64,000 nt of DNA from Phormidesmis sp. (GCA_965248535.1 CBDFJR010000005.1:320001-384000); one strand, 5' to 3'. Shown: positions 27,996-62,227, numbered from the stretch's first letter. Notes: generated by a model from the letters alone, not told the origin. Program-made: numbers and translations.

Positions 27996-29318
27996 ATGGG
28001 TCAGCCTCTTCATTCAAAAGCCAATTATTTTTTTCAGCAGGGGCAGCAGTTGAGCAAGGCAAAAGCTTATGCAGCCGCGATCGCTCAGTTTGATAAAGCC
28101 TTAGAAAACCAGCCCGATTTCCACGCCGGGTGGTATGAGCGCGGCAAAGCTCTTTATGACTTGGGCGATTATCAGGCGGCGATCGTCAACTTTAAAGAAG
28201 TCATTGTGCTCAGATCTGACTATGCCCCAGCCTGGAACAATCAAGGTATGGCTCTGGCAAAGCTAAACCGCCATAACGAAGCGGTTGCTAGCTACGATCG
28301 AGCGATTGAGCTATATCCCAAAAACTACAAGGCTTGGTATAACCGGGGCAATGCGCTGATGAAGCTCAACTCTAGCCAAGAAGCCCTTCGCAGCTATGAA
28401 GAGACGCTCAAACTCAAGCCCGACTATGCAAGAGCCTGGTATAACCGGGGCATTGTTTTAACCCATCTGCGGCGCTATGAGGCTGCGATCGCCAGTTATG
28501 ACAAAGCTCTAGAGGTGCGTCCTCACTTTTCAGATGCTCACTACAATCAAGGGAATCTTTTTAGCCGATTGGGGCGGTTTCAAGATGCCCTCAATAGCTA
28601 CGATCGGGTGTTAGAAATTAAGTCCAGTGTGCCCGATGTGTGGCTTGGTCAAGCCCATGCACTGCACAAGCTGGGGTTTCATGAGCAGGCACTGCAAAGC
28701 TATGATACGGCGTTGCAGTTAAATCCGGCGGCTCACGAAGCCTGGTATAACCGGGGCAACACGCTAGAGACGCTTTGGCGCTATGAAGATGCGATCGAGA
28801 GTTATCATCGCGCTCTGCAATTAAAGCCAGACTTTCCAGAAGCTCTTTATAACCAGGGATGCGCCTTTCAGAGGTTAGGCGACTTGGCTCAGGCGATCGA
28901 CTATTACGATCGGGCTGTGGCTGCTAAACCCGACTTTTATGAAGTTTGGAGTGGTCGCGGCGTTGCTCTGCGTAAATTGGGGCGCTATGACGAAGCGATC
29001 GAGAGCTTCGATCGAGCGTTGGCGATCAATCCTGATTGTGATGAAAGCTGGTATCGTCGGGGTCGAGCGCTCGATCATATTGGGCAAAGTGAGGCGGCGG
29101 TAGCAAGTTATGACAGAGCGCTGAGTCTGTCTCCTGAGTTTGACAAAGCTTGGTATAGCCGAGGCGTGGCGCTGAGTCGATTAGAGAATCACGAGGGCGC
29201 GATCGTCAGTTATGACAAAGCGCTGGCGTTGACTCCTGACTTTCCCAACGCTCAAAGCAGCCGCAGCCTCTCAATGAAGTATTTGCAGCAGAGTCAGTTG
29301 CCTTTGGTCGATCCATAA
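27996..29318 (+). CDS. Tetratricopeptide repeat protein
   Basis: About 12 repeats of AWYNRG...A...YD+AL...P. Confidence 0.92.
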   Translation: MGQPLHSKANYFFQQGQQLSKAKAYAAAIAQFDKALENQPDFHAGWYERGKALYDLGDYQAAIVNFKEVIVLRSDYAPAWNNQGMALAKLNRHNEAVASYDRAIELYPKNYKAWYNRGNALMKLNSSQEALRSYEETLKLKPDYARAWYNRGIVLTHLRRYEAAIASYDKALEVRPHFSDAHYNQGNLFSRLGRFQDALNSYDRVLEIKSSVPDVWLGQAHALHKLGFHEQALQSYDTALQLNPAAHEAWYNRGNTLETLWRYEDAIESYHRALQLKPDFPEALYNQGCAFQRLGDLAQAIDYYDRAVAAKPDFYEVWSGRGVALRKLGRYDEAIESFDRALAINPDCDESWYRRGRALDHIGQSEAAVASYDRALSLSPEFDKAWYSRGVALSRLENHEGAIVSYDKALALTPDFPNAQSSRSLSMKYLQQSQLPLVDP

Positions 29319-29382
29319 GACAGCGATCGACCAAAAAGCTGATCCTAGACTAACTAGCCATCATGCAAAATGAGGAACATTT

Positions 29383-29757
29383 TCAATCTAGCTGAATTGT
29401 TGTTTTGTTGTGCAACTCCTCTACTTGAATTAATGAACCACTACCCAGAACAATGTTGAATTTCACTAAAGAACGTTCAACCTGATAACCGGGCAACACT
29501 CGAACAACTTGATACTCTGTGGTCAAATCACTGGTGCCATCCCACTTCAGAAATGCCAGTTGATTAGACGCAATCTCACTCAGTTGTGAAGTGAAGTCTT
29601 CAATGTGATCGCTAACATCCAAAACAATGCCAGACGACATGAAGAGATAACGCTCTTGTAAATCCAAAGTCACACTCACCCGATAACGCTTTTCGATTGA
29701 GCAACGTAACTCAACCGTAAACGAAATCGAGCTAGGCACGATCGTCCTAACTCCCAT
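29383..29757 (-). CDS. Hypothetical protein
   Basis: 124-aa ATG ORF with an AAGAGG RBS inside a perfect hairpin. Confidence 0.6.
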   Translation of the reverse strand: MGVRTIVPSSISFTVELRCSIEKRYRVSVTLDLQERYLFMSSGIVLDVSDHIEDFTSQLSEIASNQLAFLKWDGTSDLTTEYQVVRVLPGYQVERSLVKFNIVLGSGSLIQVEELHNKTTIQLD

Positions 29758-29796
29758 GTTTTTGTCCTCTTAGTTAAGTTAAAGAGGACAAAAACA
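29757..29796 (-). promoter_or_regulatory. Perfect 15-bp hairpin covering the RBS and first base of the start codon
   Basis: TGTTTTTGTCCTCTT (29757-29771) / AAGAGGACAAAAACA (29782-29796). Confidence 0.6.
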
Positions 29797-29893
29797 CGGA
29801 TCTCTCAGACATTGGGTTGGGGTGAAAACTGTATGCAGGATCTTGATTCCAGCCTTTCAAGATCCCATAGCAAAGCCGACGGTGTACAATCAT
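29774..29893 (-). CDS. Putative 39-aa leader ORF
   Basis: CAGGAGG RBS then ATG; MIVHRRLCYGILKGWNQDPAYSFHPNPMSERSVFLSSLT*; stop falls in the hairpin loop. Confidence 0.45.
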   Translation of the reverse strand: MIVHRRLCYGILKGWNQDPAYSFHPNPMSERSVFLSSLT

Positions 29894-30406
29894 GAACGCC
29901 TCCTGAGTTAATGGTTCTAACTAGGGATGGAAGTCCTCGGAGTTCTGATCTCGTAAATCAGACTTCGGGGCACAACTCCATCACTGCGGTGTATTCTACA
30001 GGAGTTTTTTGTTTTTTGGAAGGCTGAGTTTTTTTGGGGGAGGGGGAAGCGATCGTAAATTCTCCCTGATTTATGTTCCAGTCGAGCAACGGCATGGGTG
30101 CGATCGACTCAGCGCCATGACCGATCTATCGGGACGAGACAATTTATTTTTGGCTCCCTTAGAATCGAAAAATCTGAGCGCCATTCCGTATAAGTACTCG
30201 AAAGTGGAGAGTTATCCTGTGGGAATTCAGTATAATTCCTAAAAAAATGGGAGTTGTCCGGTTTCCATACGGCATGATTTCCATGAGAGGGATATTTATC
30301 CTGTTTGATAGGAGTTCAAACGGCAGAAATAGTAGTTAGCCCCCTTGCGCCAAATGAACATTCGCACTGATGAGTTAGCATTTGAGAGCGATTACAAGGA
30401 TAAGCA

Positions 30407-30934
30407 ATGAAAATTTTGGAGACTAATCGGCTCATCCTGAGACATCAGGTACTGGAGGATCTTGATAGTCTCTACGGGCTTTATTGCGATCCAGCGGTGA
30501 AGCAGTATATTCCCAATGCGCCCCAGACGTATCAAGAGACGAAGGAGGAGTTGGAGTGGTTTCTCAAGGGACATCCAAAGTATCCAGAGTTAGGGCTTTG
30601 GGCAACCATTCATAAAAAAACAAATCAGTTCATCGGACGGTGCGGGTTGCTGCCTTGGACGATTGATGGGTGTGAAGAAGTGGAGGTAGCCTATTTGCTG
30701 TCTAAGGCGTATTGGGGACAAGGGTTAGGAACTGAAGTGGCGCAGGGGGTCGCGCGATATGCCTTTGAGCAATTGCATCTGACGCGATTAATTTGTCTGA
30801 TCGATCCCGAAAACCAGGCTTCGATTCGTGTTGCGTGCAAGCTCAGCATGGAATTTGAGAAAGAGTTCGAGGATGAATACGGACGATGTTTGGTGTACTC
30901 GACCTCAAGATCAGGTGGTGTGAGAAATCGATGA
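30407..30934 (+). CDS. GNAT N-acetyltransferase (RimJ/RimL-like), cassette gene
   Basis: ILETNRLILR, YWGQGLGTE, PENQASIRV. Confidence 0.9.
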   Translation: MKILETNRLILRHQVLEDLDSLYGLYCDPAVKQYIPNAPQTYQETKEELEWFLKGHPKYPELGLWATIHKKTNQFIGRCGLLPWTIDGCEEVEVAYLLSKAYWGQGLGTEVAQGVARYAFEQLHLTRLICLIDPENQASIRVACKLSMEFEKEFEDEYGRCLVYSTSRSGGVRNR

Positions 30935-30982
30935 TTCAACAAGCCAACCGCTAGCCAACGCTTAACCTGCTGTCAGAGCGGA

Positions 30983-31071
30983 GGCTAACAACGCCCATGC
31001 ACACCGACCGCTAAGAGTTGATCGGTGATGATGCAGAGGCTACTTGCGGCGGGTGATGGGCAACGTTGGGC
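30983..31071 (+). other. attC site
   Basis: R'' GGCTAAC, inner arms GCCCATGCACAC / GGGTGATGGGC, R' GTTGGGC. Confidence 0.85.
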
Positions 31072-31117
31072 TGGTGCGAATAGCGAATAGAAGCGCGAAT
31101 TGATAGAATCGAAGACT

Positions 31118-31618
31118 ATGGTTGATTATGATGAAGCGATGAAATCCGTCATGAATGGAGACTTGAAGCATTTACAATTTCTGGCGAGTAAGCATGAAGA
31201 TTTTCCCAATGGTAAAGATGCATTCATCCAACGCCATTGGATAACCAATGCTGTAGATTGCGGAACATTTGAAGTCGTGCAATGGATGCTGACCCAAAAT
31301 GTCTCGCTTAAATTCCGAGATGATGAGGGATACACACCTCTTCACTCGGCTATTGATAGGGACAATTCAGACAAACATCGTGTCCTTGAACTTTTATGTT
31401 TAGCTGGGGCCGATACGAATGCACATGGAATTAATGATTGGACACCACTTCACATGGCCGCAGCAAGGAATGATGTAGAAGCGTTGAGGATTCTGCTTAC
31501 TCATGGAGCTGATGCCAGCGTAAGAACTCGTATTGATGATTATTCGACTCCTTTAGAAGAGGCTAAATTACTTGGCTCCAGTGATGCAGTAAAATTTTTG
31601 GAGCATCCAAATAATTAA
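31118..31618 (+). CDS. Ankyrin repeat protein, cassette gene
   Basis: GYTPLHSA, WTPLHMAA, GAD, TPLEEA. Confidence 0.88.
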   Translation: MVDYDEAMKSVMNGDLKHLQFLASKHEDFPNGKDAFIQRHWITNAVDCGTFEVVQWMLTQNVSLKFRDDEGYTPLHSAIDRDNSDKHRVLELLCLAGADTNAHGINDWTPLHMAAARNDVEALRILLTHGADASVRTRIDDYSTPLEEAKLLGSSDAVKFLEHPNN

Positions 31619-31638
31619 CGCCATAATCCTCAACACCA

Positions 31639-31738
31639 GCCCATAAAGGCGCTGCACCCGACCGCCTACAGCCTGCGCTACGCCTCGTTCCTCGGCTCCG
31701 CTTCGGCTTCCGGCGGCGGGTGAGCTTAGTCGTTGGAC
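31639..31738 (+). other. attC site (R'' degenerate)
   Basis: GCCCATA...GCTGCACCCGACCGCC...GGCGGCGGGTGAGC...GTTGGAC. Confidence 0.8.
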
Positions 31739-31901
31739 TGCTCCATCTCTCGGTAGGGAAGGTACAGCAAGGTTATTTGTTGGTGTTGAGGATTAATCGC
31801 CGTAAGGTTGTCTGTAGGGCATTGCCTTGAGGGGAATGGTGAGGCGATCTCGCGAACCACAATTACGGCGTAAAATCAAGACATAGTTTCATGCAACGGA
31901 T

Positions 31902-32105
31902 ATGTTAAAAACACTGTGGGCTACGGTTCGGCAGGGAAAAATTGAGCTATTGGAGTCAGCCGAACTACCAGAAGGGGTAAGAGTACTGGTAACAGTCTTG
32001 CCCAGCGACGAGGCTGAGTTCTGGCTACAAGCAAGTCAAATATCACTCGATGCAGTTTGGGATAATACTGAGGATGACGTATATGCCCAGCTACTCCAAG
32101 CATGA
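31902..32105 (+). CDS. Putative antitoxin
   Basis: GKIELLE...LPEG...WDNTEDDVY; overlaps a MazF-type gene. Confidence 0.75.
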   Translation: MLKTLWATVRQGKIELLESAELPEGVRVLVTVLPSDEAEFWLQASQISLDAVWDNTEDDVYAQLLQA

Positions 32106-32412
32106 TGTTATATTGGTGCGCTATCCCTTCTCAGATTTATCGAGTTCAAAGGTAAGACCTGCTGTTGTTGTGAGTACGTCGCATCCATCTCAAGACATTC
32201 TCATTACTCCTTTAACAAGCAAAACAAGTGCATTACTAGCAGGAGAGTTTGTGCTGTTTGAGTGGGCAGCAGCCAAATTGAACGTAACTACCGCAGTCAA
32301 AAGAGGGGTATATACAGTACATGAAAGTTTGGTGATTAAAGTAATTGGTCAGTTGGTTAAGGTCGATGCTGATCAACTTAAGCAATCTTTGCAAAGCTGG
32401 TTAGGTTTGTAA
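32083..32412 (+). CDS. PemK/MazF family toxin
   Basis: DVILVRYPFSDLSSSKVRPAVVVS...PLTS. Confidence 0.88.
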   Translation: MPSYSKHDVILVRYPFSDLSSSKVRPAVVVSTSHPSQDILITPLTSKTSALLAGEFVLFEWAAAKLNVTTAVKRGVYTVHESLVIKVIGQLVKVDADQLKQSLQSWLGL

Positions 32413-32506
32413 TTTAAGCCAATAGCCACAGCCCAAGGCAGTGTTGGTTTGCAAATGAGTATGATGGGAAGTCTCAAGAGCAAATGCTCAGGTATGGTAT
32501 GCAACT

Positions 32507-33081
32507 ATGTCTAACAGATTGGAGTGTGCACAAAGACTATATGAAAGTGTTTTGGACTGGTACAAAAGTGCAGATTCAAAGGCTCAGGTAGTTTTAGCAA
32601 TCGATGCTGGCTTCTTAGCATTTCTCACAAGTACAGTTTTTTCCGAGCCTGATAAGCTACGAGCAATTCTTGCTGAATTCAATTGGGTAACCTGGTCAAC
32701 TCTAACTTTGATGCTTTTGTCGTTAATAGTATCGATTGGATCATCTATAGCTTGCATTTGGTCACGAATGTATTCATCCAATGAAGTCAAGCGAATTATT
32801 AAAAAAGCCGAGTTGGAATTTAACGACACTAATACTTACCCGCCGGAAAAATAATGTGGTTTTTCCAATTTATTGAAGGTTTGAACCAGCAAAAATTTCA
32901 AGCTACTCTTGAGTCCATTGAGGAGGAATTCGAGCTTAAAGTGATGGCAGAAGAAATTTATATTCTTTCAAAGAATGCTCGCGAGAAACACTTCATATTT
33001 AACATTGGCTTTGGGTTTGCAGCATTAAGTTTAATTCTTTTTGTCGTCGCGGCTGTGAGTTATTTATCCTCTGTCGCTTAA
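32507..33081 (+). CDS. Pycsar-effector-like (DUF5706/PycTM) membrane protein, split at the A5 run 32847-32851
   Basis: DWYKSADSKAQVVL motif, 2 TMs, then WFF...LSKNAREKH and a terminal TM; the halves differ by one frame. Confidence 0.65.
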
Positions 33082-33097
33082 GTTCTAAGTAAACGCA

Positions 33098-33184
33098 GCC
33101 CAACAACCCGGCTGGAGCGGACTGAAGGGAGATCTTGGTAGAAATGCGAAGGTTATTTGCAGCCGCTCAGCCGGAACGTTATGC
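33098..33184 (+). other. attC site
   Basis: R'' GCCCAAC, arms CCGGCTGGAGCGGACTG / CAGCCGCTCAGCCGG with extrahelical bases, R' GTTATGC. Confidence 0.9.
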
Positions 33185-33255
33185 CGCCGAAAATTCAGTG
33201 TGAGAAAGGCATTCAAGCTTTTTAGTTGAGTGTTGTAGTACCTGAAAAATTGAGG

Positions 33256-34194
33256 CTAATTACCCTGATGCTTGGATAAGTCCTCAACAACTTCGAGGAA
33301 ATTCCTTAGAACGGTTGACTGATTGTGAGTTCTCCTAACAGCAACAATTTCTAACACTGGAGAGAATTCCTGAATATCGCGGTAAATGACCCCAGTCCGT
33401 CGAAGGTTTTTCACATTAGCTGGAAGCACTGAAACACCCATCCCTCCAGCGACCAAACTCAACACAGTTGTTATCCAGGCTGCCTCTTGGACAATGACAG
33501 GCTTACAGTGAGCGCTGATGCAAAGTTGATCAATTTTATCGCGTAAGCCACGAAGTAAGGTGTGCGGTGGTAGAACAAACTCCTTGCCGTTAAGCTCTGC
33601 GAGTGAAACACTCGTTTTTTTAGCTAAGAAATGCTTCTCCGGGAGGACAAGCACGAGTGATTCATGAAGAACCAGAGTGTCAGAAAAAGACTCGCTATCC
33701 TCTTTAAGCAAGTCTTGTAAGTTGTGTTTATGGAAAAAGCCAATATCGATTTGATGATTGCGTAACTGTTCGATTTGATCATAAGAAGCCAGTTCATGCA
33801 GAACAAGATTAACGTTCGGAAACTGTTCGCGAAAATCTCGGATAATACTGGGTAATTTGCTATTTGCAATTGATGTATTGATTCCTACATCCAATCGACC
33901 GTATTTTCCTGCTTGGGTTTCCTGTGCGAGTTCAATGGCTTTTTTTGTCTGCTCGATGATTTGCTCGGCTCTTATCAAGAAAGCCTGTCCCGCATCGGTT
34001 AATCCTAAGGGACGAGTTGAGCGATCGAAGAGATCGAAGCCCAACCTTGTTTCTAGTCTCTGGATCTGTTTACTTAAAAAACCTTGGTCAAGATCGAGCG
34101 CAAGGGCTGCTTGAATGAATCCTTTATGATTTTTCAGGGCGATCGCATATTCCAGATGTCGCAACTCAAGTTCGTGCCATCTTGCCGATTTCAT
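33256..34194 (-). CDS. LysR family transcriptional regulator
   Basis: ELRHLEY...LSKQIQRLETRLGFDLFDRSTR...LTDAG HTH; LVAGGMGVSVLP. Confidence 0.92.
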   Translation of the reverse strand: MKSARWHELELRHLEYAIALKNHKGFIQAALALDLDQGFLSKQIQRLETRLGFDLFDRSTRPLGLTDAGQAFLIRAEQIIEQTKKAIELAQETQAGKYGRLDVGINTSIANSKLPSIIRDFREQFPNVNLVLHELASYDQIEQLRNHQIDIGFFHKHNLQDLLKEDSESFSDTLVLHESLVLVLPEKHFLAKKTSVSLAELNGKEFVLPPHTLLRGLRDKIDQLCISAHCKPVIVQEAAWITTVLSLVAGGMGVSVLPANVKNLRRTGVIYRDIQEFSPVLEIVAVRRTHNQSTVLRNFLEVVEDLSKHQGN

Positions 34195-34203
34195 GCTTTT
34201 ACT

Positions 34204-34268
34204 ATGACGCTTTAGTCATGTACTCATGTCAATGATAGCGATTTTATCATATTCATCTCCCCTATACT
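34204..34268. promoter_or_regulatory. Divergent promoter region with two inverted repeats (candidate LysR sites) and a -10 box
   Basis: ATGAC-N6-GTCAT (34204-34219), ATGATA-N7-TATCAT (34232-34250), TATACT (34263-34268). Confidence 0.45.
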
Positions 34269-34324
34269 GTTTTCATCCGAGCAAGCCGCTCAGTCATGCT
34301 TATAACAACAACAAAGAGGAATGA

Positions 34325-34552
34325 ATGATTAAACGTGTTTTGCTGGTAGGCGGGACTCATGGCAACGAACTCATTGGAGTTTATCTCATCAAGAAATTTG
34401 AGCAAGACCCGGAGCTAGTTCGTAGAAACAGTTTTGAAACATTGACTCTGTTAGGTAATCCGAGAGCTATAGAAGCAACTGTCCGCTACATCGACAAAGA
34501 TTTAAATCGTTGTTTCGAGGTTCAGGAGTTCAACTATGAGCAACCTAAGTAG
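34325..34552 (+). CDS. Aspartoacylase N-terminal part
   Basis: GGTHGNE zinc motif, [16 protein letters not shown]. Confidence 0.85.
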
Positions 34553-34591
34553 TACTTATGAAACTCAACGAGCGACAGAAATTGACCATGA
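34521..34591 (+). repeat. 71-bp direct repeat, copy 1
   Basis: 60/71 identical to 35407-35477 by my count; contains AGGAG-N7-ATG. Confidence 0.9.
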
Positions 34592-35394
34592 CACCTATTA
34601 TTATCTATCCATTTACATCAGTCGGAACTGAGGCAACAGACTTATCCATTCATGCCATCAAATACATTTCAGATCCCTTTTTCCTAGCTTTATGCATCAT
34701 CTTTGTTGTTTGCACCTGTACAGGGATCGTGATTCACTCTTGTAAGCCAGCTTTCGTAGATCCAATTGCTAACGTCAAGATGTCAGGTTCTCCCGACCAA
34801 ATTGATTATGTAATAACTGGCTTCTTAATAAATGGATTTGGTTTGATCCTCGCAGCATTTGCTATGCCAAGATTCATACAATTAGAGCCAGTCAAGGCTT
34901 TTATATCGTTCTCTGGAAGTTATCTGTTAGGAATGTTTATTGGCGGATGGTTATATTTTTTATCTCGAAGGACTTTGCTAAGGCTTAGGCTTATTTCACC
35001 GTGGACTACGATTCGCAAACTCCACTGTCAGGAATGCAGGAGATCCCTTCATCTAATTGCATCCTCTAATTCATTTGAAAACCTGTTGTTTAACTATTTG
35101 AATTCAGCCGAGCAAGTAGCTGCAAGACTTGGCAGCACAGACTTTGAGATATGGCAGTGTTCTCACTGTCACCCATCCGCTAATCGGGATAGTGTACATC
35201 TGCGAGGCTATAGAAGATCCGGCTCTGTAATTTGCCCAACGTGTCACGAGGCTACGATGAGTGCAGGTCATGTATCCATCACTCGGAAAGGTCCTCAGGA
35301 AGAAGAAGAAGAGACGACTTACACCTGTCTTTGCTGTTCTAATAGGATGCGGAAGACTCGTACTATTACTTGGTCGGAGTTTGATCCAGTATAA
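34558..35394 (+). CDS. 3-TM membrane protein with C-terminal zinc ribbons (like the tail of TPM-domain proteins)
   Basis: CQEC...AEQVAARLGSTDFEIWQCSHC...CPTC...CLCC. Confidence 0.7.
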   Translation: MKLNERQKLTMTPIIIYPFTSVGTEATDLSIHAIKYISDPFFLALCIIFVVCTCTGIVIHSCKPAFVDPIANVKMSGSPDQIDYVITGFLINGFGLILAAFAMPRFIQLEPVKAFISFSGSYLLGMFIGGWLYFLSRRTLLRLRLISPWTTIRKLHCQECRRSLHLIASSNSFENLLFNYLNSAEQVAARLGSTDFEIWQCSHCHPSANRDSVHLRGYRRSGSVICPTCHEATMSAGHVSITRKGPQEEEEETTYTCLCCSNRMRKTRTITWSEFDPV

Positions 35395-35406
35395 GTCATG
35401 AATAGT

Positions 35407-35477
35407 TTCAGGAGTTGAAGTATGAGAAACCTAAGTAGTATCTATGAAACTCAACGGGCTAGAGAAATTAGCCGTGA
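35407..35477 (+). repeat. 71-bp direct repeat, copy 2
   Basis: Matches 34521-34591; supplies the RBS and start of the aspartoacylase C-terminal part. Confidence 0.9.
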
Positions 35478-36114
35478 GTTTGGATCAGAAGGACGAATGC
35501 CTGTAGATATGATCATCGATCAGCACAGTACCACCTCTAATGCAGGATTAATGCTGATTCTGGATCAGCTTGATGCTTTTACCTTGAATTTGGCAGTCTA
35601 CCTGACTGTTATACAGCCTGCTCTAAAGGTCTATAGTTCTACTAATTCGGGGCGAAATCGCGATTCCCTGCGATCGATTGCCAAATATCGGATTGGGATT
35701 GAGGTTGGTCCTATTGCTCATGGCATACTACAAGCAGAACTGTTGCAAAAAACCGAAGACTTGATTTATCCGATTTTAGATTATGTGGAGCAGTACAACA
35801 ACAACATGGTTGCCCTTGAGACTTCTCCGTTGCTCCTTTACCAGTATGTTGGTGTGATCGACTATCCCAGAAATGACCGGGGCGAGATTGCAGCAATGAT
35901 TCATCCTCAGCTTCAGTTCCAAGACTATGAAGCATTGAAGCCTGGTGCGCCAATGTTTTTGACTTTTGATGGGGAAACGATCTGCTATTCAGGAGATGCA
36001 ACTGTTTATCCCCTTTTCATTAATGAAGCCGCTTATTATGAAAAAGGCATTGCGATGTGTCTGACTCAAAAGCAGCGATTTCATGTCAACCTTAACCCAC
36101 TTGAGCATTTATGA
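35422..36114 (+). CDS. Aspartoacylase C-terminal part
   Basis: YETQRA, IIDQHSTTSN, GIEVGP, IDYPR, MIHPQLQ, FINEAAYYEK. Confidence 0.85.
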   Translation: MRNLSSIYETQRAREISREFGSEGRMPVDMIIDQHSTTSNAGLMLILDQLDAFTLNLAVYLTVIQPALKVYSSTNSGRNRDSLRSIAKYRIGIEVGPIAHGILQAELLQKTEDLIYPILDYVEQYNNNMVALETSPLLLYQYVGVIDYPRNDRGEIAAMIHPQLQFQDYEALKPGAPMFLTFDGETICYSGDATVYPLFINEAAYYEKGIAMCLTQKQRFHVNLNPLEHL

Positions 36115-36725
36115 TATTTCGACAGAATCTAACCACGATCGCGACAATCATCGGAATGTCAATCATGCCACTGCCAGCTTTCTCTACAGAGGTTCTAATT
36201 AGAGTAGACTGTCTGAGTCCAACTCAAGGCGCAGGAGCCTGCGAGGTGAGATGGCCTAATTTTCCCAACACTGATATCTGGGATGTGACATGGCTAGATG
36301 GCGTGCAAACTAGAATCAGAATGTCTGGGAAAAATGGGCCGCAACGCTGGAATCCACAAAATAAACAGTGGGCTGACGGCTCCAGCGTCGGTCTTTGCTG
36401 GGATCGCCAATGCATTCATCTTCCCCGAGACCAATGGAAATCTTTAGCATCTAAAACGACCAGAGCGCCAATCGAGTGTTCAAATCCTACTCTGCAAGAA
36501 AGTACATGTCAGATGGAATATGTGCGCGAGACAAAAGGTGTTCGAGTTTATTGGCCAGATGGTTCTATCGAACATTACCTCAGTTCGCCAAGTGACAATC
36601 GCTCTGCATTGCAGTGGCGCAAATGGAGCCACAATAAAAATAGATGGATTGAGGTGGCAAATTTTGGGATATGCCTTGACAAAATGTGCTTGCTTTTTGA
36701 TGCTGATTTCTTCAAGAAACGATGA
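36111..36725 (+). CDS. Secreted hypothetical protein with two internal Cys/Trp-rich repeats
   Basis: Signal peptide ending PAFS; repeats V.W.DG...W...W...G.C.D..C. Confidence 0.7.
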   Translation: MIFRQNLTTIATIIGMSIMPLPAFSTEVLIRVDCLSPTQGAGACEVRWPNFPNTDIWDVTWLDGVQTRIRMSGKNGPQRWNPQNKQWADGSSVGLCWDRQCIHLPRDQWKSLASKTTRAPIECSNPTLQESTCQMEYVRETKGVRVYWPDGSIEHYLSSPSDNRSALQWRKWSHNKNRWIEVANFGICLDKMCLLFDADFFKKR

Positions 36726-36809
36726 TGGTTAAGAATGTGAGTTCCATACTGACTTCTGACTGCTAAATCTTGACTTTAAGGTTAGAGCTTGTATAGAGAT
36801 GCCCGAACT

Positions 36810-37049
36810 ATGAAATGCCCTAAGTGTGGTTACAACAATTTGCCGGAAGGAACACGGGATGGGAGATGTGATGAGTGTGGATATCTGATGTTGCCTGAGC
36901 GTGATAATTTTGATCCTAAATGTCCTAAATGTGGTTACAACAATTCGCTGGAAGCGGCACAAGATGACAAATGTGATAAGTGCAAATGTCTGATGTCGCA
37001 TGAGCGTGAGAACATTAGAATGATGGATATTGCATGCTTTTTAGATTGA
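36810..37049 (+). CDS. Tandem zinc-ribbon protein
   Basis: KCPKCGYNN...CDEC and KCPKCGYNN...CDKC. Confidence 0.65.
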   Translation: MKCPKCGYNNLPEGTRDGRCDECGYLMLPERDNFDPKCPKCGYNNSLEAAQDDKCDKCKCLMSHERENIRMMDIACFLD

Positions 37050-37198
37050 GTTTGAGCGTGAGAACATTATAAAGATGAACACTGTTGTAGAGTATAAACG
37101 CATCGACTGGAAAACGCATTGTCAACTTCATTGCCTTAGGGTCGTCTTTCAGCGTTTAACCTCAAGAAATCAAATTGAGATTTTTAATAACGGCATCT

Positions 37199-37528
37199 TC
37201 TGATACGGTCTCTAGACTATGGGTTATTTAAGATTTTGACAGGGTAATTCTTATACTTCTAGAAAATAGATTATGGGGAAGATTTTCTAAAGGGGAAGTT
37301 AAGCCATTTAGCTTAAACAGTAGAGTCTTTAGTTCTAGTCTATAAGATGTTTGAAGTGAGCTTTCTGGTGATGAAGCTGTTAATTCTGATAGCAACCATT
37401 ACACTGGATTTTGTATAGATCGCAAGTTCTGTCTAGACAATAAGGTACACCTCATGATGCCCATTTTCAAGAAGTATAAAATTTTCAAACATACAATGTA
37501 CAATGTGATGGGTAAAGCCGCTGCATAA
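37199..37528 (+). pseudogene. Decayed cassette ORF (start approximate)
   Basis: One frame with scattered in-frame stops ends ...MGKAAA-TAA inside R'' of the next attC. Confidence 0.45.
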
Positions 37529-37609
37529 CAATTCAAATGCATCGGACAGTCGAAAGTTTCTGGTGCTGAGTTTGAGTCTGTCTGCCGCCGCTGACTAGGA
37601 ACGCTATGT
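37523..37609 (+). other. attC site (R' degenerate)
   Basis: R'' GCATAAC...R' GCTATGT. Confidence 0.7.
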
Positions 37610-37636
37610 ATTACAATCTGTGTTTCTGGAGCTCGT

Positions 37637-38161
37637 ATGGAAAAGCATAAGATCACAACACTACAAAATATCTTCAGTTCTAGACTCGATACCTTGAGCC
37701 ATCTCTTAAAGGTAGCCGAGAGTCATTTCGCAGAAGATTTGGAATCTGTATTGCAGCTTCGCATAGCATCCGATATGTTTCCTTTCGGTACACAGATTAT
37801 ATTCACTTGCAATCAGCCTCGCAACTTCGCATTGTGGTGCTTAGAAAAGCCAGAGAGCAACCTAAACCCCGATGTCGCATCTTTAGCTGAGGCTCGTAGT
37901 CATATTTCATCCACTAAGGAGCTTCTGGCAAATATCAATGCTATCGATACTAAGTTGTCAGAGATCAAACGAGTTGAGCTTGGGCAAGGGCTGTATGCAG
38001 AATTATTGGGACTCTCGTATGTAGATGATTTTCTAATGCCAAACTTTTATTTCCATCTGACGACGGCATACGACATCATGCGTATGGCAGGAGTGCCAGT
38101 AGGTAAGCGCGATTTTATGATGCATTTAGTGCCTTTCGTAAACCATCAAAGTGATGCATAA
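37637..38161 (+). CDS. DUF1993 family protein, cassette gene
   Basis: RIASDMFPFGTQI...PNFYFHLTTAYDIMR..GVPVGKRDF; stop lies in attC R''. Confidence 0.88.
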   Translation: MEKHKITTLQNIFSSRLDTLSHLLKVAESHFAEDLESVLQLRIASDMFPFGTQIIFTCNQPRNFALWCLEKPESNLNPDVASLAEARSHISSTKELLANINAIDTKLSEIKRVELGQGLYAELLGLSYVDDFLMPNFYFHLTTAYDIMRMAGVPVGKRDFMMHLVPFVNHQSDA

Positions 38162-38241
38162 CAACTCCAACGCACCGGACTAAAGTCAGTGGTTAATGAG
38201 TTGTAAAAGATATCTGTGTCCGATGATTGGGAACATTATGC
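38156..38241 (+). other. attC site (R' degenerate)
   Basis: R'' GCATAAC, arms TCCAACGCACCGGAC / GTCCGATGATTGGGA, R' ATTATGC. Confidence 0.75.
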
Positions 38242-38292
38242 AGAAAAATCTAAGGGTTAAAATAGGGGTGTCGTTGAAACGAGGTTAAGCCC

Positions 38293-38419
38293 AGGACAGT
38301 TCGACAGCCTCGCTACAGCAAAGAAGAATTTGCTCGACGCGGCGATGAGATCTATAGAATCTCAGGTGCGGCCCCAAGTCGAGGAAGATAATCATGGGAA
38401 GATTGTGGCGATCGACCCA
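38293..38419 (+). pseudogene. Fragment of a small cyanobacterial TA-associated gene
   Basis: (M)TVRQPRYSKEEFARRGDEIY / SQVRPQVEEDNHGKIVAID; start mutated, frameshifted, truncated. Confidence 0.6.
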
Positions 38420-38476
38420 TACCGAAACAGCAAGCCTTGAAGTGAGTTAAAATCGAGAGACTGCGATCGACTATCT

Positions 38477-38603
38477 ATGAGTGAAACCGTCTATTGAAAC
38501 CAGTAGCTTGGGCTACCTGACTGCTCGACCTAGCCGAGACACTGTTGTGGCTGCCAGTATTGACATAACGAGGGAGTGGTGGGACACACGTCGCGGCTAC
38601 TTC
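38477..38603 (+). pseudogene. 5' fragment of a PIN/VapC-type toxin
   Basis: MSETVY / ETSSLGYLTARPSRDTVVAASIDITREWWDTRR. Confidence 0.65.
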
Positions 38604-38644
38604 AAAAATCGCATCCCAACGACTAGAAGTCCTTCGTAATCTTG

Positions 38645-38684
38645 TGCAAAAGATACTAGCTGCCGCTCAACTTAGCCGTTCGGC
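38645..38684 (+). other. attC right half
   Basis: AAAAGATACTAGCTGCCGCTCAACTTAGCC-GTTCGGC resembles the right arms of the other attCs. Confidence 0.6.
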
Positions 38685-38716
38685 AGCTTGTGCGCGGTGT
38701 TGTATACTGAGCTAAT

Positions 38717-39100
38717 ATGTCAAATCAATCTGCACCAGAAATCGAGCTGCTACGGGCAGCGTATTCGGCCTTCAACGCGCGCGATATTGATGCCGCTCTC
38801 GCCCTCATGACTCCCGACGTAGCTTGGCCGAGGGCGTTCAAAGGCGGTTTTGTCCGTGGGCCTGAGGAAGTCCGCGCCTACTGGACAGAGCAGTGGAGCG
38901 AGATCAATCCACACGTCGAGCCGATTGCCTTTTACTCGGAGGACGCTGGGCAAGTCTTGGTTGATGTGCATCAAGTTGTGCGCGATCTAGCCGGAGCCTT
39001 ACTTGCTGATGAGCACGTTGGCCACCGTTTCACCATTGAGCATGGCTTGATTCGAGCCATGGAAGTCTGTTCACTGCCATCGTCTGGTCTCGGTGCTTAA
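38717..39100 (+). CDS. SnoaL-like / NTF2 family protein, cassette gene
   Basis: AYSAFNARDIDAALALMTPDVAWP...GPEEVRAYW; GC-richer than neighbours; stop lies in GCTTAAC (R''). Confidence 0.88.
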   Translation: MSNQSAPEIELLRAAYSAFNARDIDAALALMTPDVAWPRAFKGGFVRGPEEVRAYWTEQWSEINPHVEPIAFYSEDAGQVLVDVHQVVRDLAGALLADEHVGHRFTIEHGLIRAMEVCSLPSSGLGA

Positions 39101-39247
39101 CCCATGCTCTGTGGTCATAACTATCACAGCCCCTAGTGGATTATGCTTTTGTCTCAACTGATGTGCCTTTAGAATTCATCTTCTGTTTAAACAAGCATCG
39201 CCACTCTGCCATTAGACAAGCAGCCGCACAAACCTATGCACCCGGCT

Positions 39248-41557
39248 CTAGCGTTTCTTCCCAAATTTCGATTTTAAGTCGTCTAGCGTTGGCGATTTTG
39301 ATTCAGACGTGGGTTGCTTAGGTTGAGTCTCACGTTTAGGAATCGATTGAGTTTCCTGTTTGCGAATCGGTTGAGATTCCTGTTTACGAATCGGTTGACT
39401 CTCTGAGCGATCGCCCGACTTCATCGATAGACTAATTCGTTTCAAGCCCTGATTGACTTCTAATACTCGAACCATTACAACCTGTCCAACTTTGACGATC
39501 TGCTGCGGGTCACTGACAAAGCGATCGGCGAGTTGTGACACATGGACTAAACCATCTTGATGCACTCCCACATCGACAAATGCGCCGAAGTTGGCGACGT
39601 TGGTGACTACGCCTTCTAGCTCCATTCCGACTTTGAGATCAGACATTTCTTTTACGCCTTCTTTAAAGGTGGCGTATTTGAACTCAGCGCGAGGGTCACG
39701 TCCGGGCTTTTCTAACTCTGCAATGATGTCGCGCAAGGTGGGTTCTCCGATCGTGTCACTCACATAGTTTTTGAGATTGGCTTTGAGGTGATCGGCAATT
39801 TGGCTCGTCTGCGTCAAGGGCAGCGCGAAATCTTTGGCGATCGCTTTCACCACACCATAGCTTTCGGGGTGAACGGCGGTATTGTCGAGAGGATTGTCAC
39901 CATCGCGAATCCGCAAAAATCCGGCGGCTTGCTCAAAGGTTTTCGGCCCCAGTTTGGCAACTTTGAGTAGGGCTTTGCGATCGCGAAAGATTCCGTTCTG
40001 ATTGCGATAGGTCACAATGTTATTAGCAATGGCAGGCGAAATGCCAGAGACAAAGGTTAGTAACTCTTTAGAAGCCATGTTGAGATCGACTCCGACATAG
40101 TTGACGCAACTCTCAACCGTCTCGTCTAGCTTCTTTTTGAGCAGTTTTTGATCGACATCATGCTGATATTGCCCCACCCCGATCGACTTGGGATCGATTT
40201 TGACCAATTCCGCGAGGGGATCTTGCAATCGTCGGCCAATGCTAATCGCGCCTCTGACGGTGATATCTAGGTCAGGAAACTCGGCGATCGCCACATCACT
40301 CGCCGAATAAATCGAGGCTCCCGACTCATTCACCATGACTTTAATCGGCTTTCGGTCTAGCGTTGCCAAAACTTCGGCGACGAATTCATCGGTTTCTCGT
40401 CCGGCGGTGCCGTTGCCGATCGCAATCAATTCAATCTTGTGTTGATCAAGCAGTTGTTTTAGCGTGGCGATCGCCTGCACTCGCTGATGTGATCCTGTGT
40501 GCGGAAAAATCGCCTGGTATTGCAAAAACTTTCCCGTTTGGTCGAGAACGGCGACTTTGCATCCCGTCCGAAATCCCGGATCGAGGGCTAGGGTTGGCTT
40601 CATTCCGGCGGGCGCAGACAGCAGCAACTCCCGCATATTTGACTCAAAGGTTTTGATCGATTCGATATCGGCTTCAGTCTTTTTCTCAGCCCGAACTTCT
40701 GTGATCAAAGACGTTTTCATCAATCGATTAAACGCATCTTTAAGCATCGATCGATAGAACACTCGCACCGATTTTATCTGACTGCGAATCTCGGATTCTA
40801 GATAATTTAGAACCGCATCTTCGTCAAAATCTAGATCAAAGTTCAGAATATTTTCGGTCTCACCCCGATAGAGTGCCAGTAGGTTATGAGGCGCGATCGC
40901 GCTGACTTTTGCCTGAAATTTGCGATACATCTCATACTTTGTGGAACCTTCGGCGTGGTCACTTTTAATGCTCGATCGGAACACGCCCGTCTCTAACAAA
41001 AACTCGCGCAGATAAGCCCGGAGTTCTGCCTTTTCTGAGACTTCTTCTGCCAGAATGTCGGCGGCCCCCTTGAGCGCTTCTTCAACCGTTTTAACGCCCT
41101 TCTCTTCAGACACAAACTTTGCGGCTTCGGCTTCTAACGATCGTGCTGCCCCATTGGGTTGATTGAGAGACTTGATGAACTGTGCTAACTCTCCTAAGCC
41201 TTTTTCTTTGGCGATCGTGGCCCGCGTCCGGCGTTTGGGTCTAAACGGCAGATAGAGATCTTCTAGCTCATTTTTTTGCAAACAAGATTCAATCTTCACC
41301 CTAAGCGGCTCAGTGAGCTTGTCTTGAGATGTGATCGAATCGAGAACCGTTTTTTTGCGCTCTTCTAACTCGGTTAAATAGGCGAAGCGATCGGACAAAT
41401 CGCGCAACTGCACCTCATCCATTTCGCCCGTGCGCTCTTTGCGATATCGCGCAATAAATGGCACAGTGGCTCCTTCTGCAAACAAATCCAGCGCACTTTT
41501 AACCTGAGCAGGATGCAGAGACAACTCTTCTGCCAGAAATTGGGAAATATTTAACAT
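39248..41557 (-). CDS. tex: Tex family RNA-binding transcription accessory protein
   Basis: GATVPFIARYRKE, LDPGFRTGCK, IGNGTAGRET, S1 domain; ESQPIRKQ repeats near the C-terminus. Confidence 0.93.
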   Translation of the reverse strand: MLNISQFLAEELSLHPAQVKSALDLFAEGATVPFIARYRKERTGEMDEVQLRDLSDRFAYLTELEERKKTVLDSITSQDKLTEPLRVKIESCLQKNELEDLYLPFRPKRRTRATIAKEKGLGELAQFIKSLNQPNGAARSLEAEAAKFVSEEKGVKTVEEALKGAADILAEEVSEKAELRAYLREFLLETGVFRSSIKSDHAEGSTKYEMYRKFQAKVSAIAPHNLLALYRGETENILNFDLDFDEDAVLNYLESEIRSQIKSVRVFYRSMLKDAFNRLMKTSLITEVRAEKKTEADIESIKTFESNMRELLLSAPAGMKPTLALDPGFRTGCKVAVLDQTGKFLQYQAIFPHTGSHQRVQAIATLKQLLDQHKIELIAIGNGTAGRETDEFVAEVLATLDRKPIKVMVNESGASIYSASDVAIAEFPDLDITVRGAISIGRRLQDPLAELVKIDPKSIGVGQYQHDVDQKLLKKKLDETVESCVNYVGVDLNMASKELLTFVSGISPAIANNIVTYRNQNGIFRDRKALLKVAKLGPKTFEQAAGFLRIRDGDNPLDNTAVHPESYGVVKAIAKDFALPLTQTSQIADHLKANLKNYVSDTIGEPTLRDIIAELEKPGRDPRAEFKYATFKEGVKEMSDLKVGMELEGVVTNVANFGAFVDVGVHQDGLVHVSQLADRFVSDPQQIVKVGQVVMVRVLEVNQGLKRISLSMKSGDRSESQPIRKQESQPIRKQETQSIPKRETQPKQPTSESKSPTLDDLKSKFGKKR

Positions 41558-61292: not shown

Positions 61293-61418
61293 CGGTTCAG
61301 ACATCAGATTAACCACTGCTAGAGATTTCTAATTGAAGTTCCGCAGTTGAAATTTTTGGATCTCAGGCTGCTGTAGTTAGAATGGGAGAATCAACCTGGC
61401 TTGACCGGAAGGTTTCAC

Positions 61419-61640
61419 ATGGTTTCATCAGAGTTAATCTTGAACTTGAGAGGACTGAGCCGTTCAGACAAGTTTCACATTATACAAATTCTGATCTCGG
61501 AACTAGCCCAGCAAGAAACGGATCTGATTAAACCTGACCAAGCTTACCCAGTCTGGTCGCCCTATGATGCGGTTGAGGCAGCAGATACGATGTTACAGGT
61601 GCTACGTGCTGCCAAGGCTCAAGATCATGCGGGACGGTGA
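61419..61640 (+). CDS. Small hypothetical protein coupled to an aspartic protease
   Basis: LSRSDKFHIIQ...YPVWSPYDA; overlaps the next start. Confidence 0.7.
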   Translation: MVSSELILNLRGLSRSDKFHIIQILISELAQQETDLIKPDQAYPVWSPYDAVEAADTMLQVLRAAKAQDHAGR

Positions 61641-62055
61641 GCGATACCCATTCATTTCTAGTGATGCAACATTGGGCGAGGCTAGTTTTCGCCCGTATTT
61701 ACCACTCACCCTGTTTCACCAACAAGTTTCTGTCACAGCATCTGGACTGCTAGATACTGGAGCAAGTGTCAATGTATTGCCATATTTGACAGGGGTTGAG
61801 CTTGGATACGAATGGGAACGGCAAACAACCGCGCTGAGTTTGACAGGAAACTTGGCCCAGTATGAGGCGCGTGTTGTGCTTGCTCAGGCTGTCGTTGGGC
61901 AGCTTGAGCAAGTGCAACTTGTATTTGCCTGGACACAGGCTACGAACGTACCACTTATCTTGGGACAAGTTAATTTCTTCATGGAGTTTGATGTTTGTTT
62001 TTACCGTTCACAGCTAGAGTTTTCAATCAGCCTCAAAGTTCCTGCCTCAGAGTAG
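61627..62055 (+). CDS. Retroviral-like (clan AA) aspartic protease family protein
   Basis: LLDTGASVNVLP, PLILGQ..FF. Confidence 0.8.
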   Translation: MRDGERYPFISSDATLGEASFRPYLPLTLFHQQVSVTASGLLDTGASVNVLPYLTGVELGYEWERQTTALSLTGNLAQYEARVVLAQAVVGQLEQVQLVFAWTQATNVPLILGQVNFFMEFDVCFYRSQLEFSISLKVPASE

Positions 62056-62227
62056 CTTGTTGTTATTGCCAACCATCTAACACTGCGTTGGTGCGAACGA
62101 GACAGAAAGGTTATCGGTAGGAGTTTGAGGCTGTTTGTCGCCGCATAACTTCACCGATGTGTGACTTTCATAAAACCGCTCAGAACTGACTCTCACCCTA
62201 GAACCAGAGATTTCTTGAGAGCTAGTA

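Follow-up and report, generated by a model that had tools for sequence, protein, structure and literature searches.

A probable degenerate chromosomal integron in Phormidesmis sp. headed by an integrase-deleted platform that recurs in the genome

The 64,000-nt stretch of the Phormidesmis sp. genome analysed here (C5:320001-384000, referred to as the window; the genome comprises 5.03 Mb in 5 contigs) carries a row of attC sites and small genes between a TPR gene and tex. It is most probably a degenerate chromosomal integron, in which a platform has lost its integrase gene intI by deletion, the cassettes would have been inserted by an integron integrase (IntI), and mobilisation in trans would be possible. 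The array consists of about seven cassettes, starting at 30335 and ending at 39245. The first inspection of the DNA, the sequence-only reading, had proposed a decaying chromosomal cluster of attC sites lacking an integron-integrase (CALIN) with about eight cassettes, and this description was upheld, with about seven to eight cassettes, no adjacent intI and clear decay.

The attC sites were examined with a covariance model, R1, built from 13 attC-like sites that all lie outside the window, four of them beside the two intact intI genes of the genome. Since the model took in no window sequence the test is not circular. A heuristic attC finder and a motif regular expression, both with many chance matches, served for picking the reference sites only. 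Their alignment (A1) was given a hand-set structure of 22 pairs, and its consensus fold has 15 predicted pairs, 5 of them with compensatory changes. The window was scanned over all 64 kb with filters off, and R1 matched on the plus strand all five full or near-full sites proposed from the sequence alone, at the same coordinates: attC1 (R'' at 30983 to R' at 31071; match 30978-31076, expectation value (E) 2.9e-12), attC2 (31639-31738; match 31633-31746, E 9.8e-4), attC3 (33098-33184; match 33093-33191, 87.4 bits, E 1.5e-23), attC4 (37523-37609; match 37518-37617, E 4.1e-12) and attC5 (38156-38241; match 38151-38249, E 1.3e-8). An absence of covariance-model matches, which would have spoken against the array, was hence not seen with R1. 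The only other window matches below E 0.01 are the reverse strand of attC3, itself the fourth-best match genome-wide, and a solitary site at 62070-62169. Rfam gave only weak hairpin matches and nothing relevant, both at gathering scores for the complete window and with the E limit raised to 10 for 28000-41000; there is no attC family among its models, and no group II intron was matched in the window. The accessible part of Ghaly et al. 2021 (PMC8352920) describes a taxon-specific attC covariance model for Cyanobacteria, in which sequence and structure of the sites are conserved. Likewise, R1 has matches in 30 of 31 related genomes of the class, and the two models probably describe the same site type.

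On the top strand, each site opens with R'', whose last bases are AAC; a 3-nt spacer leads to the L'' arm, which carries two unpaired bases, and beyond the variable loop come L', a second 3-nt spacer and R', with GTT as its first bases. The strand polarity of the sites is fixed relative to the open reading frames (ORFs). The R'' and R' boxes (RYYYAAC and GTTRRRY) pair, most sites have an internal loop of 3+3 nt (AAC/AAC), the central loop varies (about 35-50 nt), and the site lengths of 86-100 nt fit the attC range of roughly 57-140 nt. The extrahelical bases are a G and an A; both belong to the 5' (AAC) arm of the top strand and are separated by 6 paired columns (A1 columns 24 and 31), so that on the bottom strand the far base is T and the near base C. 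For canonical attC sites, the accessible text of Nivina et al. (PMC5027507) describes an AAC arm that, on the top strand, carries two or three extrahelical bases, the outermost 6 pairs apart, with a conserved T farthest and usually a G nearest on the bottom strand, and an unpaired central spacer of 5-6 nt. The arm, the 6-pair spacing and the far T of that description are all matched here, whereas the near base is C and not G, and the spacer is 3+3 and not 5-6 nt. The 13 reference sites all have GTT, and AAC is nearly invariant among them. In the window, attC1 and attC3 have kept both triplets, and the mutated core triplets noticed at first inspection were seen in the other three sites (AAC to ATA in attC2, GTT to GCT in attC4 and GTT to ATT in attC5). 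A conserved 5' flank, together with an extra C in R'' (A1 columns 1-14, reading ...GTACAC versus ...ATAAC), is common to four of the 13 reference sites and could mark a subtype or reflect a conserved 3' end in one cassette family.

The first 12 nt of each cassette were reverse-complemented and compared with the R'' boxes. Agreement with the own R'' was 9, 10, 9, 10 and 9 of 12 versus 2-9 of 12 for the R'' of other cassettes, the own R'' being the row maximum in five of five rows, one of which becomes tied once the AAC/GTT triplet is excluded. Own-end complementarity, stated for each cassette at first inspection, is what is expected from a circular cassette intermediate. Sites 1 to 3 are spaced by 0.6-1.4 kb and sites 4 and 5 by 0.5 kb, which agrees with a CALIN as defined in the accessible part of Cury et al. 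2016 (PMC4889954), namely at least two attC sites with neighbouring ones less than 4 kb apart and intI absent from the surrounding 4 kb.

Upstream of the first cassette lies a leader of 950 bp (29390-30334) that ends at the first G/TT junction, the slash marking the joint. At its outer end is ORF124 (29383-29757, minus strand), a conserved unknown protein of the family termed ORF123, followed by a structured non-coding region, region X (29758-30035, minus strand). The history of the leader can be read from a contig of another species, G004:C1009, which is 88% identical to window 29731-30021, continues with an intact 319-aa intI on the minus strand and from there to the contig end is 73% identical to window 30073-30338. 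Because these flanks match the window on both sides of a whole intI, the window contains the same platform, from which about 930 bp of intI were deleted. Left over is a stub of about the first 19 codons (30073-30130, minus strand), whose 57 nt align to the 5' end (first 57 nt) of the intact gene and have lost the start codon and acquired one stop and one frameshift. The earlier remark that no integrase is in view holds for the integron-integrase model TIGR02249 (cut-off 265 bits), which has no match in or near the window, and has to be amended for this stub. The other long leader copies of the genome are contiguous across the deletion point, and so are G003:C1 and G004:C63, which places the deletion in two other species and indicates one deletion inherited by all copies and older than the species split. 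The G004:C1009 IntI is 57% and 56% identical to the two IntI proteins resident in the genome, which share 69% with each other; the deleted integrase was of a third lineage. Between stub and array lies the former intI-attI intergenic region (30131-30334, plus strand), the last approximately 45 nt of which are attI-like and end at the G of G/TT (30335). Seven full leader copies share these 45 nt with one mismatch in one copy and diverge right after ...AGTAG/TT into different cassettes, the pattern expected of an attI-attC junction. All 25 leader matches in the own and related genomes end at query positions 274-279 of 279, 22 of them at 279. The leader end is accordingly referred to as a putative attI-type site.

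That the leader is repeated (29390-30340) emerged from a DNA search of the family with 29320-39245. Local BLAST of the genome found 17 copies with the 124-aa ORF and one partial copy. Seven full copies, one interrupted and one partial extend to window position 30333-30342, and shorter copies end near 30031-30056, one of them abutting the stop codon of a resident intI. All nine long-type copies are followed by attC, and 8-9 copies of the deleted platform head attC arrays at different loci of the genome. R1 gave 43 matches genome-wide at E 0.01 or below, corresponding to 42 sites in 23 clusters after one opposite-strand duplicate was dropped, and the co-location of platforms and arrays expected by chance from the area involved is about one quarter of one cluster. 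When the leader loci of own and related genomes were given to R1 (24, being the 25 found minus that of the window), an attC on the matching strand was detected at 12 of them in the 1.5 kb downstream, 9 of the 12 being in other genomes.

The search of the genome for IntI that had been called for returned two intact genes, both on contig C2: C2:161487-162425 (TIGR02249 468 bits; integron I1) and C2:1131581-1132513 (466 bits; integron I2, whose intI is the one abutted by a short leader copy). The catalytic R, HxxR and Y residues are visible in the alignment of both proteins, and R1 places 3 and 4 attC sites beside the two genes. Of the 31 related genomes, 17 have an IntI match above the cut-off. 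I1 and I2 have about 190 bp of their attI regions in common, ending at the same GTT junction. Between the I2 intI and its first cassette (C2:1132612-1132770) four tandem repeats of about 41 bp, imperfect palindromes as judged by eye, may be protein-binding sites of the I2 attI. A GC-rich stretch (84-nt match) is present in identical form in both arrays, with one copy in I1 and two in I2.

Seven sequencing runs match part of the stretch, none of them recorded as RNA. Contigs of two runs, X1 and X2, cover the array; these carry the same organism label and study and may be the source of the assembly. Two others, X3 and X4, contain scattered pieces only at depth 2-6 and were not interpreted. One contig each in X1 and X2 joins 30334 to 31065, so that exactly cassette 1 is skipped and the GTT fits both sides. 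The depths in X2 are nearly additive, 11.9 for the contig with cassettes 1 and 2 plus 5.1 for the joint versus 18.2 for cassette 2, and those in X1 are not (49.6, 30 and 35.9). No such leader-to-cassette-2 junction is present in the assembled genome, where the start of cassette 2 is unique. Excision of cassette 1 at the attI end, or its insertion there, would leave such a joint, which hints at an event of this kind. The remaining read joints were disregarded, their shorter side being below 30 nt or their ends falling inside sites.

Taken in order, the favoured explanation starts from a platform between the TPR gene and tex made up of ORF123, region X, intI, the intergenic region and attI. The deletion of about 930 bp removed intI apart from 57 nt of its 5' end, and some seven cassettes, bounded by attC sites of the common cyanobacterial type, would have been added from G/TT at 30335 by integron-integrase recombination. 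Since no integrase is encoded in cis, further excision must depend on IntI in trans, and excision or reshuffling would proceed through one of the two C2 genes. Reactions between two attC sites would be the likeliest trans route, because attC sites are generally accepted by non-cognate integrases. Partial decay is seen in three mutated triplets, one site without its left half, a truncated last site and several broken genes. The array had earlier been called either mobilised in trans or orphaned; the latter was given up on account of its own attI-type junction and intI stub, and two intact IntI could act in trans.

Several observations weigh against this explanation. The mutated AAC or GTT triplet in three of the five sites should impair cleavage. 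DNA folding of the five sites (top/bottom strand -21.5/-17.6, -23.0/-25.2, -15.9/-18.5, -9.1/-9.4 and -10.3/-9.2 kcal/mol) makes the bottom strand the stabler in three of five and thus reveals no consistent bottom-strand preference. The IntI type cognate to the attI is not intact anywhere in the genome and, as attI sites are reported to be recognised only by the cognate integrase (accessible part of PMC2095811), insertion at the array's attI may no longer be possible. A scan of the leader for promoters and terminators yielded no more sites than shuffled sequence (cassette-promoter consensus: 2 sites versus 2.0 expected), and a TATAAT box at 30230-30235 is kept in three of seven leader copies. 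Sites 3 and 4 lie 4.3 kb apart, so that the array would be split into two CALINs under the 4-kb rule in the accessible text of PMC4889954. The DNA between these sites, segment 4, may be captured chromosomal DNA and not a true cassette. Finally, the shorter side of the read joint measures 27-30 nt at a likeness threshold of 90%, in runs with many related genomes.

The decay would also suit an inert fossil, an old integrase-built array in which recombination has ceased and the cassettes are slowly decaying ordinary genes. This is considered somewhat unlikely. It is favoured by the three mutated triplets of five, the half site and the truncated terminal site, by broken genes (PycTM-like, aspartoacylase and the fragments of cassette 6), by the absence of the cognate IntI type and by the deletion, which is common to G003 and G004 and hence old. 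However, attC1 and attC3 are intact and the latter ranks fourth in the genome, two intact IntI with visible catalytic residues are present, the leader-to-cassette-2 junction occurs in two runs, and the 45 nt of the attI end are nearly invariant in seven copies versus 21% difference at ORF third positions. A split of the array by rearrangement from one complete C2 integron, a CALIN origin proposed for genomes such as this one with IntI elsewhere (PMC4889954, accessible text), is very improbable considering the array's own attI-type end and third-lineage intI stub; moreover, the I1 and I2 attI regions are unlike the leader beyond a sole match of 21 nt, which falls inside the 5' coding region of the I2 intI.

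Insertion of cassettes outside att sites has been demonstrated (bioRxiv 10.1101/2022.09.11.507474, accessible part), and the genome holds about 13 solitary attC matches including 62070-62169, for which secondary-site insertion is plausible. For the array, one-by-one addition at a non-attI (attG-type) hot spot can be given very little credence, as its first junction is the end of a conserved platform that heads 8-9 arrays at the same G/TT position, and that platform end is the region upstream of intI in G004:C1009. It is even harder to believe that the sites do not belong to integrons at all and are another palindromic repeat family flanking genes by chance. Cyanobacterial genomes are repeat-rich, this one having 5128 copies of the cyanobacterial octamer HIP1, and the lack of an attC family in Rfam leaves room for such a view, but the same repeat family forms arrays beside both IntI genes, and its members have AAC...GTT boxes, two extra bases on one arm of the L stem, a variable loop, compensatory changes in 5 of 15 pairs and a strand polarity fixed relative to the ORFs. 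The degenerate integron with an intI-deleted platform is the reading retained below. Its sites, junction, intI stub and family of platform copies are observed directly, past insertion by IntI and present mobilisation in trans being what we infer from the DNA.

An extension of this reading, rather improbable as it stands, is that the platform unit would be a self-maintaining integrase-less satellite which spread to at least 8-9 loci after the loss of intI, is kept by selection across species, as the intact ORF123 copies and almost invariant attI end would suggest, and exchanges cassettes through the I1 and I2 integrases in trans, with ORF123 having a function in mobility of the platform or in the control of recombination. 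Of the 17 genomic copies of ORF123, 16 are intact (123-124 aa), and differences of 0.081, 0.038 and 0.213 at codon positions 1, 2 and 3 indicate purifying selection. ORF123 and region X are located directly 3' of intI in four integrons of the genus (I2, G002:C58, G004:C1009 and G004:C928); region X was found neither in I1 nor in the four integrons of other genera checked. Based on this conservation and position, ORF123 is a candidate new integron accessory factor. Searches with the family in Pfam, NCBIfam and PADLOC gave no match, its 404 homologues are all named hypothetical, with Phormidesmis as source of the few that carry a source name, no usable ESM Atlas match was obtained, and an AlphaFold2 model from 16 near-identical sequences had a mean predicted local distance difference test score of 40.5, unusable for fold search. 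An IS200-like transposase was considered from the size, copy number and hairpins and rejected, there being no Y1-transposase match and no HUH motif by eye.

Region X has a mean pairwise identity of 0.92 in 7 copies. The RNA fold of 29700-30040 on the minus strand reaches -106.2 kcal/mol (z -4.6), and an 18-bp perfect hairpin (approximately 29754-29799) includes both the start codon of ORF124 and its ribosome-binding site. Among copies, non-coding leader sequence differs by 8-11%, versus 21% at third codon positions of ORF123, which suggests that the non-coding sequence is under constraint. The unit present 17 times in the genome is about 710 bp long and consists of a 58-bp terminal hairpin, missing in the window copy, ORF123 and the structured region. 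Six of its copies have no attC array within 6 kb downstream.

The cassettes are all on the plus strand, and their G+C content of 0.385-0.47 is lower than the approximately 0.50 outside the array and the 50% of the whole genome. Cassette 1 (30335-31064) encodes a GNAT acetyltransferase (30407-30934; Pfam PF13302, E 3.9e-31) and contains attC1, and cassette 2 (31065-31731) encodes an ankyrin-repeat protein (31100-31618; Pfam Ank_2, E 1e-18) and contains attC2; their own-end scores are the first two given above. Cassette 3 (31732-33177) holds a small ORF upstream of a PemK/MazF-like toxin (31902-32412; PemK E 2.1e-6), a split PycTM-like gene and attC3. The PycTM/2TM-effector-like ORFs 32507-32854 and 32854-33081 correspond to the N- and C-terminal halves (PADLOC E 7.4e-10 and 1.4e-8), and 32507-33081 is a frameshifted lone effector gene in a cassette that also carries a MazF-type toxin.

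Segment 4 (33178-37602, plus strand, 4.4 kb) ends in attC4, and R1 found no further attC inside it (best E 8.7). Pfam identified a LysR regulator (33256-34194, minus strand) and an aspartoacylase/AstE-like gene in two pieces of 75 and 230 aa (34325-34552 and 35422-36114), parted by an inserted 278-aa ORF; a 204-aa ORF and a zinc-ribbon ORF are also present. The inserted ORF has a Cys-rich C-terminus and no family, and the insert is flanked by direct repeats of about 55 nt (near 34536 and 35420, by eye), both copies having the same in-frame stop. The LysR and aspartoacylase genes form a divergent pair. In one related genome (G072) LysR is paired with an intact 297-aa AspA without any attC nearby, and it is this attC-free pair that suggests that segment 4 may have been captured from chromosomal DNA. 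The gene just outside the ORF123 end of integron I2 (C2:1130586-1130784) is an aspartoacylase paralogue with 73% DNA identity to the broken gene of segment 4 (window 35856-36054).

Cassette 5 (37603-38234) comprises a DUF1993 protein (37637-38161; Pfam PF09351, E 1.2e-37), whose stop lies inside R'', and attC5. Cassette 6 (38235-38675) is a relic of ORF fragments, none above 52 aa, ending in the right half (L'-R') of an attC at approximately 38655-38682. This half site had been listed from the sequence alone and can be retained in part: 38662-38680 is an exact match to the L'-R' pattern of the family, R1 does not report it, and the pattern scan as a whole, with 10 matches versus 4.35 expected, lends it weak support. 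Cassette 7 (38676-39245) contains a SnoaL-like protein (38717-39100; Pfam SnoaL_2), an R'' relic, a 140-bp tail and a truncated attC of which R''-L'' only is left (39218-39245, plus strand) and which abuts the stop codon of tex. The SnoaL gene occurs in many genomes of the family at 77-88% DNA identity and is placed between attC sites at other loci in G086, G089 and G071; it is a travelling cassette. In G086 the 140-bp tail known from the window also comes after the gene, with a complete attC behind it, and in G071 the attC of the SnoaL cassette starts at the stop codon, at the position equivalent to the R''-like relic 39095-39101. That lone R'', listed last at first inspection, thus sits where an attC begins in G071, and the true last site is 39218-39245. 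Of three stop codons said to fall inside R'', two were confirmed among ORFs of at least 50 aa, those of DUF1993 (38161) and SnoaL (39100).

The array is flanked on the left by the TPR gene (27996-29318, plus strand) and on the right by tex (39248-41557, minus strand; stop codon at 39248), whose protein is 91-92% identical in seven genomes of the same genus. The TPR gene adjoins tex in four of the five relatives whose tex flank was compared; in G003 there is no TPR gene within 20 kb of tex. The TPR-tex interval is as short as 0.46 kb in G006, against 2.8-4.1 kb in G007, G001 and G002, and in these four it has no DNA in common with the 9.9-kb interval of the window. It encodes in relatives a reverse transcriptase (604 aa, G001 and G007), a NACHT-GUN4 protein (785 aa, G002) and toxin-antitoxin-like pairs, among which PIN or DUF4160/DUF2442 pairs were noticed. 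R1 gave a sole match in the intervals of relatives (L033:12636-12727, minus strand, E 0.92). Identical gene content across relatives would have spoken against a cassette array, and the content was found to differ in every relative examined; the TPR-tex spot is a hot spot for accessory and defence-like genes. Together with the lowered G+C content of the array and the SnoaL cassette at other loci, this supports insertion and a foreign origin. In a comparison with G006 as an empty site, the intergenic DNA was too diverged for exact placing of the insertion ends.

The solitary attC outside the array (62070-62169, plus strand, 25.1 bits, E 4e-5) looks like a single cassette at a secondary site. It starts 15 nt downstream of two overlapping ORFs (61401-61640 and the retropepsin-like 61564-62055), is located between cbiC and a 272-aa ORF, and has no leader copy nearby.

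The array itself is an ordinary CALIN, a degenerate integron of known kind. Sedentary chromosomal integrons of Vibrio consist of one large array with a working integrase in cis. The arrays described here resemble them in being chromosomal, in their homogeneous attC sites, in a toxin-antitoxin cassette and in cassettes mostly of unknown function, and differ in being many and small, most of them without an integrase. According to the accessible text of PMC4889954, CALINs are abundant and have been proposed to originate from integrase loss, rearrangement or secondary-site insertion, and intI pseudogenes were found near only 15 of 279. The window is alike in having at least two attC sites without nearby intI, the approximately five sites of a typical CALIN, cassettes mostly unknown or non-resistance, and IntI elsewhere in the genome, as in half of the CALINs in that text. 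It is set apart by an origin that can be read, since platform, attI-type junction and 57-nt intI stub are kept; the pseudogene count came from profile searches, so a stub as short as this would escape it. Integrons as such are known in Cyanobacteria (PMC4889954; PMC2426708; accessible parts). Ancestral platforms with a lost integrase are also reported for Xanthomonas in the accessible part of bioRxiv 10.1101/2025.06.18.660453, where intI was lost early in some lineages with stable cassette arrays. There, one platform occupies one locus downstream of ilvD; here, in contrast, one deletion allele is present 8-9 times at different loci, each copy heading a different array, and two intact integrons of other lineages exist alongside. 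A literature search, which excluded subscription journals and supplements, found no paper on a multi-copy deleted platform with a companion gene, and among its top-ranked papers none treats integrons in Phormidesmis or Leptolyngbya. What is new is one deletion allele of the platform in many copies, each heading its own array and tied to a conserved unknown gene.

CALINs are abundant and their origin is debated, and in this genome the deletion allele can be traced through 8-9 loci and two other species, with an intact ancestor-like platform copy in a relative available for comparison. What deserves further study is the multi-copy deleted platform together with its companion gene. Should cassette exchange still go on at the integrase-less platforms, many dispersed arrays would be served by one or two integrases, the action of IntI in trans on a foreign attI could be tested in a natural system, and the way in which the integron capacity of genomes is counted would change.

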